A DNA stretch of 32,000 nucleotides from Candidatus Saccharimonadota bacterium. Its GTDB lineage: Bacteria; Patescibacteriota; Gracilibacteria; BD1-5; UBA2023. The stretch is from NCBI GenBank assembly GCA_042852035.1, contig BAAFHK010000001.1, positions 240,001-272,000 on the forward strand. Reading direction: 5' to 3'. The notes beneath the pieces are model-generated. The model saw nothing but the letters and a program-made list of their open reading frames with translations, had not been told where the DNA came from and ran no database searches. Below, one piece after another: positions 2,940 to 26,099 of this stretch. The number at the start of each line of letters is the position of its first letter. The first letter of the stretch is position 1. A program made the position numbers and the translations under genes.

Positions 2940-3016
2940 ATAAAAATATGATATTTCTTTGGGGCTTCTCTAGATTTATGATATTATTTCCTTATCCTTT
3001 ACTGATTGATTCAAAT

Positions 3017-3733
3017 ATGAACAAGAAGAGTTCCTCAGAGTTTTCAGAGGCTATTAACCAGATAAACAATGCTATACTATCTACCTTTAATAAGTACTGA
3101 AGAAGTTGTTCGGCATTTTATCAAATAGGAGAAAAAGGACTTCTACCTGAAAGGAGCATATTGTTTGTTGGTATGAATCCTGCCTGATCTAGGAAATGAT
3201 TTCAAAAATGGAAATGAATGAAAAAGGATGAATATTTCAAAAAAAATGCAATGGATATTTCGTCCTATGATAGGTACTATAAAATCTATTCTGATAATTT
3301 TGGTCGCTCAAAAAAAAGAGATTGGAATATTATCGATTTGTTAGCTCAGAGAAGTTCTAATCAATCAAAAATAGCGAATTCTATAGATTTAATTATCAAT
3401 AGGAAAAGAAAATATAGAGCTGAAAAATTAATCAATGCTCAATACAAAATATTTCTTAAGCTTATATGAATTCTTAAACCCAAGGTAATAGTAGTAATGA
3501 ATGCAAAGGCATCTGAATATATAAAATTTAAGCAGTTCAGAAACCAAAAGAAACGAATATGAAAGCAATGATTCTGGGAAATGAGACTTTGAAAAAAACA
3601 AAATCTCACCATACCAATCTTATTTACATGCCCATTATCAACATGACGACCCATGGATATATGAACGAGAGAACAACTAAAGTGGAATATTAAACGTATA
3701 TTGAAAGAAATGCAAAACTCTCCCAATAAATAG
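3017..3733 (+). CDS. Hypothetical protein, possibly uracil-DNA-glycosylase-superfamily-like
   Basis: A 238-aa frame with about ten TGA=Gly and stop TAG 3731-3733. The motif ILFVGMNPAGS resembles UDG/MUG motif A (GxNP), but I could not confirm a second motif. The functional call is weak. Confidence 0.6.
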
Positions 3734-8890: not shown

Positions 8891-8944
8891 ATATTATGAA
8901 AATGTAATATAAAGTCAAAAGAAAATATTATGAAAATGTAATAT
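8891..8944 (-). promoter_or_regulatory. Two tandem copies of the palindromic operator ATATTATGAAAATGTAATAT; the proximal copy is embedded in the trx promoter
   Basis: Identical 20-mers at 8891-8910 and 8925-8944, 34 bp apart. On the minus strand the proximal copy lies inside TTGACT (8918-8913), a 16-nt spacer, then TAATAT (8896-8891), 27 nt upstream of the trx ATG. Each 20-mer is an inverted repeat, ATATTA-N8-TAATAT. Confidence 0.6.
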
Positions 8945-8961
8945 ATAGTGTTTTGAATTAT

Positions 8962-8989
8962 AAAAAAATCCACTAAGATTTGGATTTTT
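8962..8989 (-). terminator. Intrinsic terminator of the ATPase-Toprim gene
   Basis: 9-bp stem aaaaatcca / tggattttt with an 8-nt loop that overlaps the TAG stop. A T run follows on the minus strand. Confidence 0.7.
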
Positions 8990-10781
8990 CAGGAGGATTA
9001 CATATGAGTTTTATTTTGTCGAAAAGAGGACTAAAGTTTTTAAAGTATTCTATACCAAGAGTATCAATAATGATTCTACTAAAATGAGTTTTATCTCATT
9101 TAAATGTAATGATTTCTCATCATGGTGAGCATACTTTATTGTAGTGCAAATTATCAAAATCATCATTAATTCAATAAAACATCAGTTCAATAGGGAATAT
9201 TGTTTTGGATCAGAAATGTTGTCCAGAAGTCATATCAAAAAGTTGTCTGTTGATTTTTTGGGACTTATTTATTGGTAATAATAGAGCATAAAATCATGCA
9301 TCCTTTGCTTTATTTGATAAGCAAGTTTCAGGATTGGTATCGTGAGTTATGAAGTCAAGTCAGTTCCACTGATTATATCACTCTTCATCAAAATCAAATA
9401 AACCAATGACACAACTATTTTGAAAACAATTTGCTTTTTCGAGTGAGTATTTAACATCTTTTGCATTCTGTCATTTTGTTGGTTTTGGAATATAAAACGG
9501 CATCTTGACTCAAGGGTAAAGTTTACTCCAAGATTTTTCAAGTATTTCTTTATCAGTAAATCATTCAACAAATAATAATGGTTTTTCTTTATTGCTTAGT
9601 ATTTCCAATGTTTTATTATTCTCTTGTGTTAGTTCTCGTATTCTAATTTCCTGATTTCAAATTTTATCAAAAAATTCCTTATTGGCTATTCACAGTTCTT
9701 TATATTGTGTCTTTTGTACAGGAAGTATTCTTGGTTCATATCACTTTCGAAATACTTCATAGTAATTTGTTCATTCAGGGGCTAATGATATTGTAGTTGG
9801 TGAGTGAGTTACAACTATTACCATAATTCAATTATCTACAAAATATTGATTCAATACCTTGTAAAACATTTCAGTCAAAGATGGATTAAATGTCGCATCA
9901 AATTCATCTAGTAATAACAGCTTTATGTTATTTTTATCACGAGAATTGAGTGTTGAAAATATTAATGAAGTAATGACCTTTTCTCAATCAGATAAATCTG
10001 TTACTTCCATTCATTTTTTTTCATCAATAGTCCCATTGATAATTGGGTATATCCTTGGTTGTTCGATAATTCATGTAATTGATGTGTAGTTATCTTTAAA
10101 TCTATAGTCTATTTTAAGAAGTTTAAATAATTCATTAAGTTTCTTCCACGGGGGGAATCATAATTCATTTTGCAAGTCTGAGTCGCTTATAAGGACTCCT
10201 TGATCATATTTTTCCAATTTTAATTTAGTAAATTTATTTGCATATATAAGAAATGAATCTGCTACTATATTTGAAAAAATATCATCAGATTCCCAGATAA
10301 ACTCATCATCAATAGCTCATATTATCTCTTCTCTTTGGAGCAATCCTCCCATAAATCTACTCTCTCAAAATTTTTGAGTGAGTATCTCCTTTGCTTTTTT
10401 TGAAGATTTTTGGAAACTTTTTAATATCTGATGATTTTCATTAAGAAGGACTCAGTTTGTGTAGTGGCTCCAAACACTATTTTTATGATTTATGAAATTT
10501 TGTGGTTCCGCATTTCAGATATTGTTTATTTGCTGTATATTACTTTGAAGTGTTCGAAATTGTATATTTTTATAATTTATCGGTATGCCATCAATGTCTA
10601 TGCTTGTGGCAATATTTTTATTTGGGTCTTCGGGATATTGTCACTTAATTATTTGCATTAATTGTGATTTTCCACTTCCATTTACTCAAGAAATAATTAT
10701 TAAATTTCACTCTAAGCTTATCTCAAATCAACTTGGAAAGGATTTGTATTCTTCAAATAGTCTAATATTTAAAACTCCCAT
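8973..10781 (-). CDS. Fused ABC-type (AAA15/21-like) ATPase + Toprim/DUF4435-like nuclease; OLD-family or fused PARIS (AriA-AriB)-like defence candidate
   Basis: A 602-aa single frame of 1809 nt with many TGA=Gly. Motifs: Walker A IISGVNGSGKSQL, ABC signature-like LSDGEK, Walker B KLLLLDEFDATFNP, and H-loop VVTHSP. The C-terminal Toprim motifs are PLLFVEGFTDKEIL and GLFDFDEEG. It is the most AT-rich coding stretch in the window. Confidence 0.8.
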
Positions 10782-10852
10782 ATAAATCTTAATTAATATT
10801 TATACAAATTATATTTAAAGAGACTTCTCTTTCCAGCTTTTCCGATTTTAAA

Positions 10853-11479
10853 TTATTCTTTTACCTCACACACCCCACCCACACAATTCTGATTCTTGTG
10901 TTCTTTCATCCACTTCCGACGCACGAGCCAGCCATAGATCCGACAGCCGACACAGTATCAGGCGACAGATTCGAGCCACATAAAGGTGATACAGAGGATG
11001 CATGCAAAAAGGGTAGGATTCAGTGGTGTGACGATGAGTTCATGATTTCGGAGATTTTCAGCAGTTGTCATCCAGATTTTTCCAACGGTCTCGGCCTGTG
11101 GTCCAGCAGTAGGGGCCACATAGCCTCCGAGGATGAGTATGCAGTAGAGAGCAAATACTGAGAGGAAGAGTCCGATGCTCCATGCAAATCGTTTTTGTAC
11201 CGCACCAACCCAGATTTCTTTGCTCTTTTCGAGATTCATACGTACAAGAGATCCGAAGATGCTCCACTTTGGTCCGATGAATATCTTCATGATGAACTCG
11301 AGTATGACGATGCTCACGAGGACGAGGGGGATAGAGTATTCAGCCTTGAAGAGGACGAGGAAAAATGATGTCATCGTGAAGAGGAGCATGATGCCTGTTG
11401 AGATGCGGATTTCTCGTTCATCGACGAAACCATATTTATCGTGTTTTTCAGAGATGCCGTGAATGAAGTGTCAGTACAT
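10853..11479 (-). CDS. DUF4395 family membrane protein
   Basis: 208 aa: MYGHFIHGISEKHDKYGFVDEREIRISTGIMLLF..., with several TM segments. The C-terminal GYCVGCRIYGWL motif is reached only by reading TGA 10958-10960 as Gly. The stop is TAA 10853-10855. Confidence 0.8.
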
Positions 11480-12786: not shown

Positions 12787-12806
12787 ATATTACAAAATTG
12801 TAATAT
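12787..12806 (-). promoter_or_regulatory. Third copy of the operator (perfect 9-2-9 palindrome)
   Basis: ATATTACAA-AA-TTGTAATAT, located 19 nt upstream of the DUF2202 ATG. It has the same ATATTA...TAATAT arms as the trx and arsR sites. Confidence 0.55.
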
Positions 12807-13476: not shown

Positions 13477-13767
13477 TTAAAGGCTACAAAAGTTTTTTTC
13501 GAGGTCGTGGATGAGGTTTCGTACTCGTATATCTTTAAGTGAATAGAAGACGAACTGTCATTTTTTCTCACTTATGAGGAGTCATTCTTTCTCAAGTTTC
13601 CCGAGAAATTGTGAGAGTTGAGACTGAGAAATAGTACAATCTTTCTCTAGTTCCCCAACAGATTTTGGTCCACTTAGAAGACGACAACAGAGGAGGAGTC
13701 GTTTTGGGTGGGCAATAAGCTTCAAGATATGAGCAACTTCATCTGCTCGTTCCGAGAGATTTTTCAT
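13477..13767 (-). CDS. ArsR/SmtB-family repressor, SqrR/BigR-like (candidate persulfide sensor)
   Basis: 96 aa with a winged HTH (HPKRLLLCCRLLSGPKSVGELEKDCTISQSQLSQFLGKLEKEGLL). The Cys in helix 2 (C27/C28) and the Cys near the C-terminus (C94) are 66 residues apart (C28 to C94). Two TGA=Gly. The stop is TAA 13477-13479. Confidence 0.8.
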
Positions 13768-13793: not shown

Positions 13794-13821
13794 ATATTAT
13801 AAAAATGTAATATAATGTCAA
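13794..13821 (-). promoter_or_regulatory. arsR promoter with embedded operator (fourth copy)
   Basis: The 20-mer ATATTATAAAAATGTAATAT is at 13794-13813. On the minus strand it reads TTGACA (13821-13816), a 16-nt spacer, then TAATAT (13799-13794), 27 nt upstream of the arsR ATG. That offset equals the one at trx. The 32-nt block differs from the trx proximal block at 2 positions by my alignment. Confidence 0.6.
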
Positions 13822-24062: not shown

Positions 24063-24075
24063 GATGATTATCTTT

Positions 24076-24103
24076 TTGACAATTTATGTAAAAAGAATAG
24101 GAT
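24076..24103 (+). promoter_or_regulatory. Sigma70-like promoter of the RNA candidate
   Basis: TTGACA (24076-24081), a 16-nt spacer, then TAGGAT (24098-24103), directly after the leuS stop. Confidence 0.4.
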
Positions 24104-24109
24104 TCCCAA

Positions 24110-24436
24110 ATCCACGCAGTGCTCTGCTGTCGTGGATGAGGAGCTGAACCCTACCGTTCAGAGAAAAAGAGGTGTTTCTTGGCTACTACCGATACCCCCG
24201 ATACCCGAAAGGGTACTACCGCAACTCAACCTCAGCGTCGGCGTGTCCCCAAAGGTCATGCCGCACTCCAGCACGACCTGAATCCTTGTTCACGTCGTGA
24301 CTCGGACCAAACCCCGATCTTCTGGGTTCAGGCATTCCATCATCCGGGTGCATTACGGAGGGATTGATTCGCTACGGCGAGCATCGGCTTTCTCGGAAGC
24401 TTACCTTCATTCTTTTGGCCGCCTTCGGGCGGCTTT
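24110..24436 (+). ncRNA. Candidate ~330-nt structured ncRNA, class not assigned
   Basis: A GC-enriched, ORF-poor segment bracketed by a promoter and terminators. The hairpins I could draw are:
- 24111-24136 (tccacg/cgtgga)
- 24144-24161 (ctgaac/gttcag)
- 24202-24215 with a GAAA tetraloop
- 24272-24299 (cacgac..tgaa/ttca..gtcgtg)
- 24310-24328 (aaccc/gggtt)
- 24418-24433 (gccgcc-UUCG-ggcggc), followed by UUU. Confidence 0.5.
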
Positions 24437-24447
24437 AACATTTAAAC

Positions 24448-24476
24448 AAAAAAACCTTCAGTAGAGAAGGTTTTTT
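24448..24476 (+). terminator. Intrinsic terminator (second of a tandem pair)
   Basis: A7, then the stem aaccttc / gaaggtt with a 6-nt loop, then T6. Confidence 0.75.
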
Positions 24477-24600
24477 GATTACTTTATAAATTACTATTAT
24501 AAATTCGTTTTGAAGTGTCAACTTCCTCTTATAGTAAAGATATTACGATGACACCTTATATAGTTTCATGAACGCCAAGAGAAAAAATGGAGAAAAAGTT

Positions 24601-24628
24601 TTGACAAATGTTTCTAAATACATACATT
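24601..24628 (+). promoter_or_regulatory. Candidate promoter upstream of the high-GC ORF
   Basis: TTGACA (24601-24606), a 16-nt spacer, then TACATT (24623-24628). It lies in AT-rich sequence just outside the compositional boundary. Confidence 0.35.
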
Positions 24629-24734
24629 AAGAAAATCCAGTTTGATTCAGCTCAGGCTGATCCAACTGGTGTCACCGCTCGTAGGGTGAGAAACCCCGAG
24701 TATCAACTGTCCCAATGGTCAAGAGGAGAACCCA

Positions 24735-25184
24735 ATGACCCGTACCCGAATGAACCTGGCGGCTCTGGCCGCACTCGCATCCTGCGCCGGCAACGCGACC
24801 GCCCACGTGCGTACCAAGTTCGACGTCGACACCGATCCCAAGAAGGGCATCTGCGCCATCAGCGATGGCACCGACGGCGCGATCGGCGGCGGCACCGGCG
24901 TGGTCAGCACCGAAGGCGGCGAGAACAGCAATGGCACCGGCGTGGTGAACCAGGCTGGCACCGACGGCAGCGCGATCGACGGCAACCAGCAGCAGATGCA
25001 GCAGGCCGGCGCCGCGAGCACCCAGGAAGGCGATGGCCGCACGTACGACGCCAGCGCGCAGCAGCAGGCCGATGTGAGCCGCGAAGGCGATGGCAACCAG
25101 CAGCAGGCCGAGATCCCGGTGGACCGTTCCGACACCCAGCAGGGCTGATGTCGAGGTGAAGGCAGGAGTGTGGTGGAAAGATAA
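24735..25184 (+). CDS. Compositionally foreign lipoprotein, low-complexity G/T/D/Q-rich (standard-code end 25148; code 25 end 25184)
   Basis: GAGGAG lies 6 nt upstream of the ATG. The signal peptide plus lipobox is MTRTRMNLAALAALAS-C. Third codon positions are almost all G/C. Internal repeats are GTGVV x2, EGDG x2 and NQQQ x2. There is no internal TGA. The terminal TGA 25146-25148 would be read as Gly here, adding GCRGEGRSVVER before TAA 25182-25184. The overlapping ORFs in other frames and strands look like typical high-GC shadows. Confidence 0.6.
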
Positions 25185-25205
25185 GTTCACGATCCACCTC
25201 CTGCC
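25161..25205 (+). other. GC-rich hairpin downstream of the foreign ORF
   Basis: The arms ggcaggag(t)gtgg and ccacctcctgcc form 12 bp with one bulge and a 20-nt loop. No U tract follows. Confidence 0.5.
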
Positions 25206-25309
25206 CCCCCAATACCAAAATAAAGAAAATCGATACAAGTTGATGTAAGTTGATGCATTTCGAAAGAATCTTATCTTAGGATTTTTCCGAAATGGAGTCT
25301 CTTCACGAC

Positions 25310-25346
25310 AAAAAGAAAGGAGCGCCCCTTCCGGGAGCGCTCTTTC
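25310..25346 (-). terminator. Strong GC-rich intrinsic terminator for the minus-strand operon
   Basis: Stem ggagcgcccc-UUCC-ggg(a)gcgctc. On the minus strand it is followed by tttctttttg. Confidence 0.75.
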
Positions 25347-25358
25347 AAATTGTAATTT

Positions 25359-26099
25359 TTATAATGGTTTCAATTGAGCTTTTCTTATGCCAAGTTGCTC
25401 TGTGAAATTTCTTATCACTCCAGCATCAAGTGGTGTTTGAATGAGGGTGTTTCTGCTATCAGGTGAGGCATACCTCATGGCTGGTATTGCTCAGGAATAT
25501 GACGCAAGAATGGTAGGAAGTTCTCTCCTAAGTGCATCTCTATCCTTGAGGCTTCAATTTTTGATAGCCTCTTCGAGATGATTTGTGAGAGTAAGAAGTG
25601 CCACTCATTCAACATAGAGAATAATATGGGGAATTCTCATTTGCCGCCTTCATACGTATACCTCGTGCGACCATTTTCAATGATTTATTACCTTCTCATC
25701 GAGTCATCTTTCATTCATAGTGAAGTCAACTGATATATAGCGAACTCAGTTTCCGGTAGTTGCCTTAAGAATAGCGTCAGTATGGTTACGAACATCATCT
25801 ATAATACTACTCAGCCACATTTCATAAGAGACAATATTGTCAGATTTTGCTGCAATAAGCGCCCGAATTACTTGAATAGCTACCCACTCTGGAATTCGCT
25901 GATTTTTTATAATATAGGGTCAGCGCTTGTGTTTTATATCATCTAGTGCGTTATTTACTGCAAATGTTGCAAGTCCTTCTAGATCCATTGGTGAGACCCT
26001 TCTTTCCTGTCATCCTCATGCTGTGATTACTTTTCAGAGGTGTGGAAACATATCAACCCTTCATTGTTCCGCTCCAATTCATAGGAAGCGATTATCCAT
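25359..26099 (-). CDS. Hypothetical 246-aa protein (no family recognised)
   Basis: A single frame of 741 nt with about 14 TGA=Gly: MDNRFLGIGAEQGRVDMFPHLGKVITAGGGQERRVSPMDLEGLATFAVNNALDDIKHKRG... An in-frame TAA just upstream fixes the start. It lies 27 nt downstream of the cofD-like gene. Confidence 0.7.

Follow-up and report, generated by a model that had tools for sequence, protein, structure and literature searches.

RESULTS

We analyzed a 32,000-nucleotide (nt) stretch of contig BAAFHK010000001.1 (positions 240,001 to 272,000; assembly GCA_042852035.1, a Candidatus Saccharimonadota bacterium placed by GTDB in the Gracilibacteria), hereafter referred to as the window, and focused on one gene on its minus strand that encodes an N-terminal ABC-type ATPase and a predicted C-terminal Toprim nuclease domain. 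The reading that we favor, with a probability of roughly 0.7, is that this gene encodes a divergent single-gene nuclease of the OLD family, that it entered by horizontal transfer from a host of lower GC content that likewise reads UGA as glycine, and that it occupies a variable slot between a DUF4395 gene and a thioredoxin gene (trx). The evidence that carries this reading comprises the domain architecture of the product, its conserved catalytic residues, its genetic code, and the foreign composition and variable-slot location of the gene.

An intact gene in which UGA is read as glycine

Translated with code 25, in which UGA specifies glycine, the gene forms a single frame of 602 codons (Table 1) with 28 in-frame TGA codons, no TAA, and no further TAG; translated with table 11, it splits into pieces of at most 76 amino acids (aa). 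The identical protein has been deposited at NCBI as 'hypothetical protein HHAS10_02610 [Candidatus Altimarinota bacterium]' (P0001 in our homolog set), from a Gracilibacteria-type metagenome-assembled genome, in which it lies on a 750-kb contig. Every motif quoted in the initial annotation of this DNA was found within the frame at verified coordinates, and its remark that TGA codons lie even inside the Walker A and Toprim motifs was borne out: TGA encodes the first glycine of Walker A (GVNGSGKS), the glycine of the signature motif (LSDGEK), the glycine of FVEG, and the last glycine of FDFDEEG.

To read these codons, we relied on the alignment of 39 homologs, from which two visibly recoded homologs had been left out. 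Glycine stands opposite TGA sites 25, 32, and 266 in 39 of 39 homologs and opposite site 318 in 35 of 39, and the 28 TGA sites together face 280 Gly versus 2 Trp residues. Thus, UGA is read as Gly rather than as Trp because homologs align Gly at the TGA sites, and code 4 (UGA = Trp), which was also considered, is ruled out by the same counts. The five TGG codons of the gene have Trp or aromatic residues opposite them. As the standard code would stop at codon 18 and code 4 would put a Trp into the P-loop, we infer that the gene is usable solely in hosts that read UGA as Gly, in line with what had been proposed initially.

Foreign composition and a variable slot

The gene was initially described as the most AT-rich in the window, and its GC content (0.285) and GC content at third codon positions (GC3, 0.21) are indeed the lowest among open reading frames (ORFs) of at least 150 aa, compared with a GC content of 0.391 for the rest of the window. 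Moreover, TGA accounts for 72% of its Gly codons versus 27% in the other ORFs (binomial p ~1e-8). Elsewhere in the window, two more ORFs, 2948-3733 (plus strand; very AT-rich, GC 0.30) and 25359-26099 (minus strand), use TGA for 67% and 68% of their Gly codons, respectively, versus 27% overall, and may be further horizontal acquisitions from low-GC code-25 donors.

Relatives of the locus were located by a homolog search with the neighboring DUF4395 protein; a scan of genome contigs with the same protein found no relative. The homology breakpoints between the window and the contigs of relatives (Table 1) bracket precisely this gene, and the variable segment holds this gene only, which agrees with its description as a stand-alone gene. 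Six genomes, namely, the window and five relatives, carry six different slot occupants. In four of the five relatives the occupant is an unrelated gene, so the gene is not conserved at this position. The fifth relative (L007) carries a full-length member of the same ATPase-Toprim family that shares just 28% identity with the window protein (E 3e-46); this allele is AT-rich (0.29 versus 0.40), contains 24 in-frame TGA codons, is followed by two operator repeats in the same way as the window gene, and has no Pfam family listed in its JGI record. An empty slot was found in none of the five relatives, so that the arrangement anticipated for genomes lacking the gene, in which the trx and DUF4395 operons lie side by side, was not seen, a different occupant being present each time. 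Taken together, the GC content, the TGA share of Gly codons, the flank breakpoints, and the changing slot content provide good support for the initial view of an inserted, defense-like cargo insofar as the gene is compositionally foreign cargo between two regulon units. Neither an integrase nor a transposase was found in the variable segment, no recombinase gene lies nearby, and when the surroundings of the gene were searched for att-like direct repeats and for the ends of a transposon, the only candidate was an imperfect, AT-rich 24-nt inverted repeat (75% complementary; 8958-8981 / 10784-10807), which brackets the gene exactly and is probably due to chance.

The ATPase half and readings that build on it

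The N-terminal half of the protein is an ABC/SMC-type ATPase. Residues 10-334 match Pfam AAA_21 (9.8e-10), SMC_N, and ABC_tran, and the ATPase motif residues are invariant across 42 full-length homologs (31-59% identity, 570-640 aa; Table 1). An AlphaFold2 (AF2) model of the full protein, built on this 42-homolog alignment, reached a predicted local distance difference test (pLDDT) score of 86.5, and its best Foldseek matches in the Protein Data Bank (PDB) were heads of SMC, Rad50, and retron PtuA proteins (E to 1.8e-09), with alignments covering both domains for the retron Eco8 effector, GajA, and Thermus OLD (8u7i_A, 8x5i_B, 9lpa_B, 6p74). A sequence-profile search of the PDB with the full-length protein returned ATPase heads only. 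Since the PADLOC profiles mad3, retron I-B ATPase-Toprim, AbiLi, GajA, and PtuA match the ATPase about equally, we regard it as a generic OLD/AAA_21-type head.

A head of this kind could also belong to a protein that serves as the ATPase/nuclease accessory in restriction-modification or in another multi-gene system (TIGR04435-like, AbiL-like, or MADS-like) and that requires partner genes. TIGR04435 ('restriction system-associated AAA ATPase') is the top NCBIfam match (4.9e-11, aa 255-398), but its score is 42 bits against a cutoff of 300 bits. The matches to mad3 and AbiLi point in the same direction, as does a homolog from Azambacteria (P0013; L013/L014:6886-12125), which sits, with gaps of 4 and 3 nt, between a 703-aa methyltransferase gene of the HSDR_N_2/N6_Mtase/Eco57I type and an unannotated 464-aa gene, beside AbiEi/AbiEii; this cluster may be a multi-gene variant of the system. 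The window gene, however, has thioredoxin and DUF4395 as neighbors, its variable segment contains no methyltransferase, helicase, reverse transcriptase (RT), or second nuclease, and no partner gene recurs over six other loci of the family (those of P0002, P0006, P0009, P0074, P0118, and the L007 allele), all of which renders an accessory role quite unlikely.

The product could likewise be a housekeeping ATPase-nuclease of DNA repair or chromosome maintenance (RecF/RecN/SbcC-like, or like the archaeal OLD-class protein Cran1) and have no part in defense. SMC, Rad50, and RecF heads are its top structural matches, many homologs lie among housekeeping genes, and one OLD class has a cell-cycle role (PMC12796447). 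We nevertheless give this reading little probability: the slot is filled by unrelated genes in four of five close relatives, the composition of the gene is foreign in GC content and TGA-Gly usage, the two alleles in the slot are far more diverged (28% identity) than their flanks (~79% identity), the family is a sparse one, with 2,892 clusters found in 1.84 billion representatives, and its Toprim module is common to retron and Roc-COR architectures of the defense type.

The C-terminal half resembles the Toprim of retron Eco2

Pfam, NCBIfam, and PHROGs searches with the full protein and with aa 362-602 gave generic ATPase matches only and none on the C-terminal 200 residues, even at E<=10. A profile (A2) of 24 family C-terminal domains did give matches. 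Against PDB sequences, it matched best to the Toprim of retron Ec67/Eco2 (residues 366-576, E 1.1e-08); next in rank were 1t6t, a Toprim protein of Aquifex (0.022), and, at 0.32, the Toprim of T7 primase. More specifically, E406, D410, D463/D465, and E532 of the window protein coincide with E374, D378, D460/D462, and E515 of Eco2, residues that have been assigned to two catalytic metals (PMC12405507). The E...DxD...E...K set is invariant in the 24 family domains as well as in 36 diverse carriers of this Toprim type, among which the invariant residues are E, DxD, P, E, and K. Family residue K564 falls opposite Eco2 K546 and is a putative catalytic lysine; the catalytic lysine 'K562' of PMC12405507 could not be mapped on the 9i2f chain, as position 562 is Asp in the alignment. 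The PADLOC profile RT-Toprim_I-C (retron type I-C) matched 11 of these 24 domains, with 3e-39 as the best value and 0.0011 for the window protein, and Pfam OLD-like_TOPRIM (PF20469) matched 4 of 24 (best 0.001). In a model of the isolated domain (pLDDT 89), the beta-alpha topology is that expected of Toprim, with E406 after strand 1 and the DxD motif after strand 3. Hence, of the initial description of this domain as Toprim/DUF4435-type, the Toprim part stood and the DUF4435 part did not, an Eco2-type match being obtained instead: judged from these alignments, the domain is a Toprim that is not of the DUF4435/AriB type, and the closest characterized domain is that of retron Eco2 (Ec67), a Toprim that cuts tRNA.

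These results bear directly on the suggestion that the gene is a single-chain PARIS system, i.e., a fused AriA-AriB that senses phage anti-restriction proteins and releases or activates a DUF4435-type Toprim that cuts tRNA-Lys. The PADLOC fused AriAB profile (PDLC02981) is the best-scoring defense model for the full protein (5.6e-14), PADLOC AriA profiles match too (1e-11), the domain order of PARIS is the same, and tRNA cleavage is the favored output for an OLD-type nuclease here as well. The AriAB match is partial, however: it places aa 180-451 on positions 237-482 of a 694-position profile, a segment that comprises the C-lobe of the ATPase, the linker, and strand 1 of the Toprim. With the C-terminal fragment alone, it drops to E 0.015 and covers the first Toprim strand only. 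Among the 24 family C-terminal domains, no PADLOC AriB profile matched at E<=0.01 and Pfam DUF4435 matched none at E<=1; the window protein did not match DUF4435 at E<=10, and the PDB profile search returned no AriB chain at E<=10. As the ATPase matches the five other defense profiles listed above about as well as it matches AriA, and the DUF4435 and AriB profiles are unmatched, we consider PARIS very unlikely and did not retain this part of the initial annotation.

The gene might also have been acquired horizontally and be decaying or no longer functional. Such a relic would be compatible with the strongly atypical composition, the lone position between two regulated units, and the consensus-level promoter, but is highly improbable given an intact 602-codon frame with no frameshift, family-invariant ATPase and Toprim residues that are all kept, TGA codons that sit on conserved Gly positions, and confident AF2 models of both the protein and its C-terminal domain.

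Placement as a Class 1-style OLD nuclease

Aligned with hhalign, the family profile (A1) and P2 Old share 248 collinear columns (probability 84.6%, E 6.8e-06) that begin at the signature motif, take in Walker B, the H-loop, and the linker, and extend to the Toprim E and DxD motifs. The ATPase profiles and the Toprim profile A2 support the OLD-family architecture, a fused ABC-type ATPase and Toprim, that had been read from the motifs, and this alignment, marginal in sequence similarity, is consistent with it. OLD classes are assigned by genetic context: Class 1 is a single gene, often away from defense islands, whereas a UvrD-like helicase marks Class 2, a retron RT and noncoding RNA (ncRNA) mark Class 3, and a split ATPase/Toprim pair marks Class 4 (PMC10568477). 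The window gene lies between DUF4395 and thioredoxin genes with no adjacent helicase, RT/ncRNA, or split pair, and thus fits Class 1 as a single gene outside a defense island. In particular, the flanks contain no UvrD/PcrA-like helicase GajB as in Gabija, and no Rfam family was found in the window, which departs from the RT fusion and adjacent ncRNA of a type I-C retron. As there is no ncRNA or multicopy single-stranded DNA (msDNA) locus, activation by msDNA uncaging is impossible here. We therefore regard the protein as a new, divergent member of the already known OLD-family ATPase-Toprim nucleases, best filed as a divergent single-gene ('Class 1'-style) OLD-family nuclease.

A dispersed family on both sides of the code barrier

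A domain-profile search of 1.84 billion representative proteins, clustered at 50% identity, recovered carriers of this Toprim type in the 2,892 clusters mentioned above, 1,633 of them at E<=1e-10. The best 150 carriers are mostly 570-700 aa long with the domain at their C terminus. Among 36 sampled carriers (alignment A3), 20 have AAA_21 heads and 2 have LRR-Roc-COR (ROCO-type GTPase) modules, and the Toprim module is also fused to a retron RT (PADLOC RT-Toprim_I-C). Because the carriers span AAA_21, LRR-Roc-COR, and retron RT proteins, the Toprim can be regarded as a shuffled effector module whose main architecture is the fusion to an ABC ATPase. One carrier (P0283, 1043 aa) has an 830-residue N-terminal part that matches no Pfam family. 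Family members occupy scattered loci, e.g., between cysS and a photolyase gene, after ftsZ, by thrC, or by rnc and a gene for an Era-type GTPase. Two members have defense-type neighborhoods, namely, the Azambacteria homolog described above, with its Eco57I-type and AbiE neighbors, and a member on a Gracilibacteria contig that lies near an Mrr-STAND gene and a resolvase.

The nearest relatives of the window gene are recoded as well. P0002 (59% identity) and P0003 (~50%) carry Trp at many of the TGA positions of the window gene, which marks both as recoded genes mistranslated with code 4; at the DNA level, P0002 contains 18 in-frame TGA codons and P0006 none. Five database entries (P0002, P0003, P0004, P0046, and P0054) contain 3-6% Trp, located at positions where homologs have a conserved Gly, and are code-25 genes to which the source pipelines applied code 4; motif and profile searches will be misled by them. 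In a rough neighbor-joining tree with 118 family members, a single clade unites P0001-P0004, P0046, and P0009, and the recoded P0054 and the L007 allele branch elsewhere among homologs with no recoding flag, with P0006 among the nearest neighbors of the L007 allele. This suggests that the family entered recoded hosts at least three times, a lead rather than a result since the tree carries no support values and the code was checked on DNA for few members. The initial contention that the gene must have evolved within code-25 hosts therefore stands for its own clade and does not extend to the family, which is mostly code-11 and has its other recoded members elsewhere in the tree.

Neighboring genes, operators, and expression signals

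The gene is flanked on the same strand by genes for an ArsR-family regulator, a ferritin-like protein (DUF2202), a rhodanese, and DUF4395 on one side and by those for thioredoxin, a protein resembling the TauE sulfite exporter, and an MBL-fold hydrolase on the other. An operator-like 20-mer, ATATTACATTTTCATAATAT, occurs at four sites in the window with at most 3 mismatches, versus 0.03 expected, and is kept in related contigs. Because it recurs upstream of the trx, DUF2202, and ArsR genes and is kept in relatives, the initial placement of the gene between two operator-controlled operons is reasonable and is supported by the four sites. The 20-mer is probably the site of an ArsR-type repressor (13477-13767) that governs a small sulfur/redox regulon.

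The gene has a promoter-like sequence of its own (Table 1), and the DNA at this place shares 70% identity with the corresponding stretch preceding the L007 allele. As for the terminator attributed to it, a hairpin followed by a U-run does lie over the stop codon, but a stricter terminator scan did not call it. An exact-protein search with the thioredoxin of the window found the same strain only, with 100% identical DNA including the 3' end of the gene, and is uninformative on presence or absence.

Table 1. Features of the ATPase-Toprim gene, its slot, and its surroundings (residue numbers refer to the 602-aa product)
Feature	Sequence	Position	Strand	Remarks
Complete coding sequence	Window	8973-10781	Minus	602 aa under code 25; ATG 10779-10781, TAG 8973-8975; 28 TGA = Gly
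ABC/SMC-type ATPase domain, aa 1 to ~355	Window	9717-10781	Minus	Pfam, Foldseek, AF2 model
Helical insertion, roughly aa 90-240	Window	Within 9717-10781	Minus	Between Walker A and signature motif
Walker A, GVNGSGKS	Window	10665-10688	Minus	S31, N34, G37, K38 invariant in 42 homologs
ABC signature, LSDGEK	Window	9978-9995	Minus	L263, S264, D265, E267, K268 invariant
Walker B / D-loop, LLLLDEFD	Window	9897-9920	Minus	L291, D292, E293, D295 invariant
H-loop, THSP	Window	9798-9809	Minus	T325, H326, S327 invariant
Two-helix linker, aa 357-395	Window	9597-9713	Minus	DSSP helices 357-375 and 377-395; pLDDT 58-75, least confident part of the model
Predicted Toprim nuclease domain and helical tail, aa 398-602	Window	8976-9590	Minus	Profile and model evidence
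Toprim motif I, FVEG	Window	9561-9572	Minus	E406 invariant; G = TGA
D410	Window	9552-9554	Minus	Opposite Eco2 D378
DxD motif, D463-F-D465	Window	9387-9395	Minus	Invariant; opposite Eco2 D460/D462 and DCD of P2 Old
FDFDEEG	Window	9378-9398	Minus	Coordinates verified
E532 (IELMF)	Window	9186-9188	Minus	Invariant; opposite Eco2 second-metal glutamate E515
K564	Window	9090-9092	Minus	Invariant in 36 diverse carriers of the Toprim type; candidate catalytic lysine
Sigma-70-like promoter match, TGGAAA-16-TATAAT	Window	10808-10835	Minus	10/12, best of the region, 26 nt upstream of ATG; consensus match only
AT-rich hairpin over stop codon, then U-run	Window	8963-8990	Minus	Candidate intrinsic terminator; -8.6 kcal/mol, z = -2.2
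Variable cargo segment	Window	8967-10843		Homology ends at 10844-10853 and resumes at 8947-8966 (blastn against L005, L007, L008)
Operator-like 20-mer, two copies	Window	8891-8910, 8925-8944	Minus	Upstream of trx; outside the ATPase-Toprim gene
Operator-like 20-mer, two copies	Window	12787-12806, 13794-13813		One upstream of DUF2202-rhodanese-DUF4395, one of the ArsR-family gene
Slot occupant, Na/Pi cotransporter	L005	7722-9314	Opposite	DUF4395 80% identical
Slot occupant, 354-aa HTH/PRTase-like gene	L008	7643-8707		DUF4395 73% identical
Slot occupant, DUF2806 gene	L015	3196-4059		DUF4395 83% identical
Slot occupant, 270-aa protein with no assigned function	L016	6567-7379		DUF4395 66% identical
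Slot occupant, 632-aa full-length member of the ATPase-Toprim family	L007	7813-9711	Plus	DUF4395 79% identical

Apart from the gene and its regulon, the window contains a GC-rich block (24064-25360; GC 0.50-0.57, within a window of 39% GC) in which no Rfam family was found at gathering level, matches at E<=1 were at chance level, and no tRNA was detected. Its 3' part (~24790-25279, plus strand) reads as an ORF of high GC content whose product would have a lipoprotein-like signal peptide and a tail rich in Gly and Gln, and its 5' part (24080-24440) holds no convincing ORF. The block may represent foreign DNA, a chimera of the assembly, or an RNA of unknown type.

DISCUSSION

By analogy with other nucleases of this type, the ABC-type head, in which Walker A, signature, Walker B, and H-loop are intact, would bind and hydrolyze ATP and would probably dimerize through the head and the helical insertion, as OLD, AriA, and SMC heads do. 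An infection or foreign-DNA signal would alter the state of the ATPase and thereby license the two-metal Toprim (E406, D410, D463, D465, E532, and K564) to cut nucleic acid, which would stop the propagation of a phage or mobile element. The output may be tRNA cleavage and translational arrest or, alternatively, DNA nicking or degradation as in the Class 1 OLD of Vibrio and in GajA, which cuts DNA. Because the Toprim is closest to that of Eco2, we favor RNA/tRNA cleavage over that of DNA, albeit with low confidence. Precedents exist on both sides: P2 Old, activated by ATP hydrolysis, cuts the anticodon stems of tRNAs (PMC12445682), the Eco2 Toprim is a tRNA-cutting RNase (PMC12916289, PMC12405507), and AriB cuts tRNA-Lys (PMC11464382, PMC12409363); the Vibrio Class 1 OLD nicks DNA (PMC12392090). 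The trigger, oligomeric state, and substrate in this scheme are proposed by analogy, as is the defense role, which is suggested by family precedent, the way in which the Toprim module recurs in retron and Roc-COR proteins, the hotspot behavior of the locus, and the foreign composition of the gene.

Several observations weigh against the assignment to a defensive OLD-type nuclease. First, the window protein itself reached no curated Toprim or OLD threshold, and its residues 362-602 matched no Pfam family even at E<=10; likewise, the C-terminal profile alone aligned weakly with P2 Old in hhalign (probability 13%). Second, a Foldseek search with the isolated C-terminal model gave a best E of 0.04 in the PDB and 0.055 in BFVD with generic Rossmann-like folds as top matches, and Toprim proteins scored weakly (the C-terminal region of BpOLD at TM 0.40; DnaG-type and RloB-like proteins at probabilities of 0.4-0.6); as the search yielded no significant match, the fold evidence for Toprim is suggestive. 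Third, guilt by association argues modestly for defense because most homolog neighborhoods are housekeeping, and tblastn searches found no family member among the phages of INPHARED and six partial matches only (25-29% identity) among plasmids. Finally, the subfamily is known solely from sequences and predicted models, and defense is not guaranteed because an archaeal OLD class acts in the cell cycle.

To our knowledge, very little is known about the anti-phage immunity of the ultra-small recoded Patescibacteria (candidate phyla radiation, CPR). The window gene offers a clean and intact candidate, namely, a single-gene nuclease of the OLD type that has UGA-Gly codons in its catalytic motifs and would be expressible within the UGA=Gly pool only. 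Its interest lies mainly in the recoded CPR host, in the deep divergence of the two alleles found in the variable slot, and in gene flow over the code boundary. More broadly, the compositional signal, the recoded clade, and the separate recoded branches form a data set on how often defense genes cross the code boundary and how fast they are re-coded, and the six-occupant slot could be mined for further cargo in these organisms. The OLD field gains a sizeable uncharacterized subfamily (~2,900 clusters with this Toprim type), whose Eco2-like domain bears on whether single-gene OLDs generally target tRNA or DNA.

A more far-reaching reading, which we rate as doubtful, is that these proteins constitute an unrecognized OLD class in which an ABC-ATPase sensor is coupled to an Eco2-type tRNA-cutting Toprim, and that they are exchanged as divergent alleles at a DUF4395|trx hotspot of recoded Gracilibacteria after at least three entries into UGA=Gly hosts, having then been rewritten with UGA even in their catalytic motifs. 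If this were true, defense genes would cross the code barrier repeatedly and would later be locked into the recoded gene pool.

Among known systems, PARIS likewise combines an ATPase of the ABC type with a Toprim nuclease, and both could plausibly target tRNA, but in sequence the nuclease domain of the window protein is unmatched by AriB/DUF4435 profiles or AriB structures and the AriAB match is partial. Retron Eco2 (Ec67, type I-C RT-Toprim) shares a similar Toprim over ~200 residues with five catalytic residues in one-to-one correspondence; its N-terminal module, however, is a reverse transcriptase and that of the window protein is an ABC ATPase. Gabija GajA (Class 2) and the retron Eco8 effector (Class 3) have the same two-domain architecture, with structural alignments spanning both domains and PADLOC GajA and ATPase-Toprim_I-B profiles that match the window ATPase, whereas the window locus has no GajB-type helicase and no RT/ncRNA neighbor. 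Class 2 Toprims, moreover, bear an extra helical insert (PMC10568477), and the window protein is about the size of a Class 1 protein. The window protein shares its overall design with the Class 1 OLDs (P2 Old, Thermus scotoductus OLD, and Vibrio cholerae Class 1 OLD): all are single polypeptides of ~580-600 aa with an N-terminal ABC ATPase that carries a helical insertion and, at the C terminus, a Toprim with E / DxD / E / K residues, all have no fixed partner genes and often lie outside defense islands, and the full-length model of the window protein aligns in Foldseek with the Thermus scotoductus OLD (6p74). The window protein differs from them in its marginal sequence similarity (hhalign 85%), in being missed by Pfam OLD-like_TOPRIM, in a Toprim subtype closer to that of retron Eco2 than to canonical OLD Toprims, and in its code-25 Gracilibacteria-type host, in which 28 of its codons are UGA-Gly.

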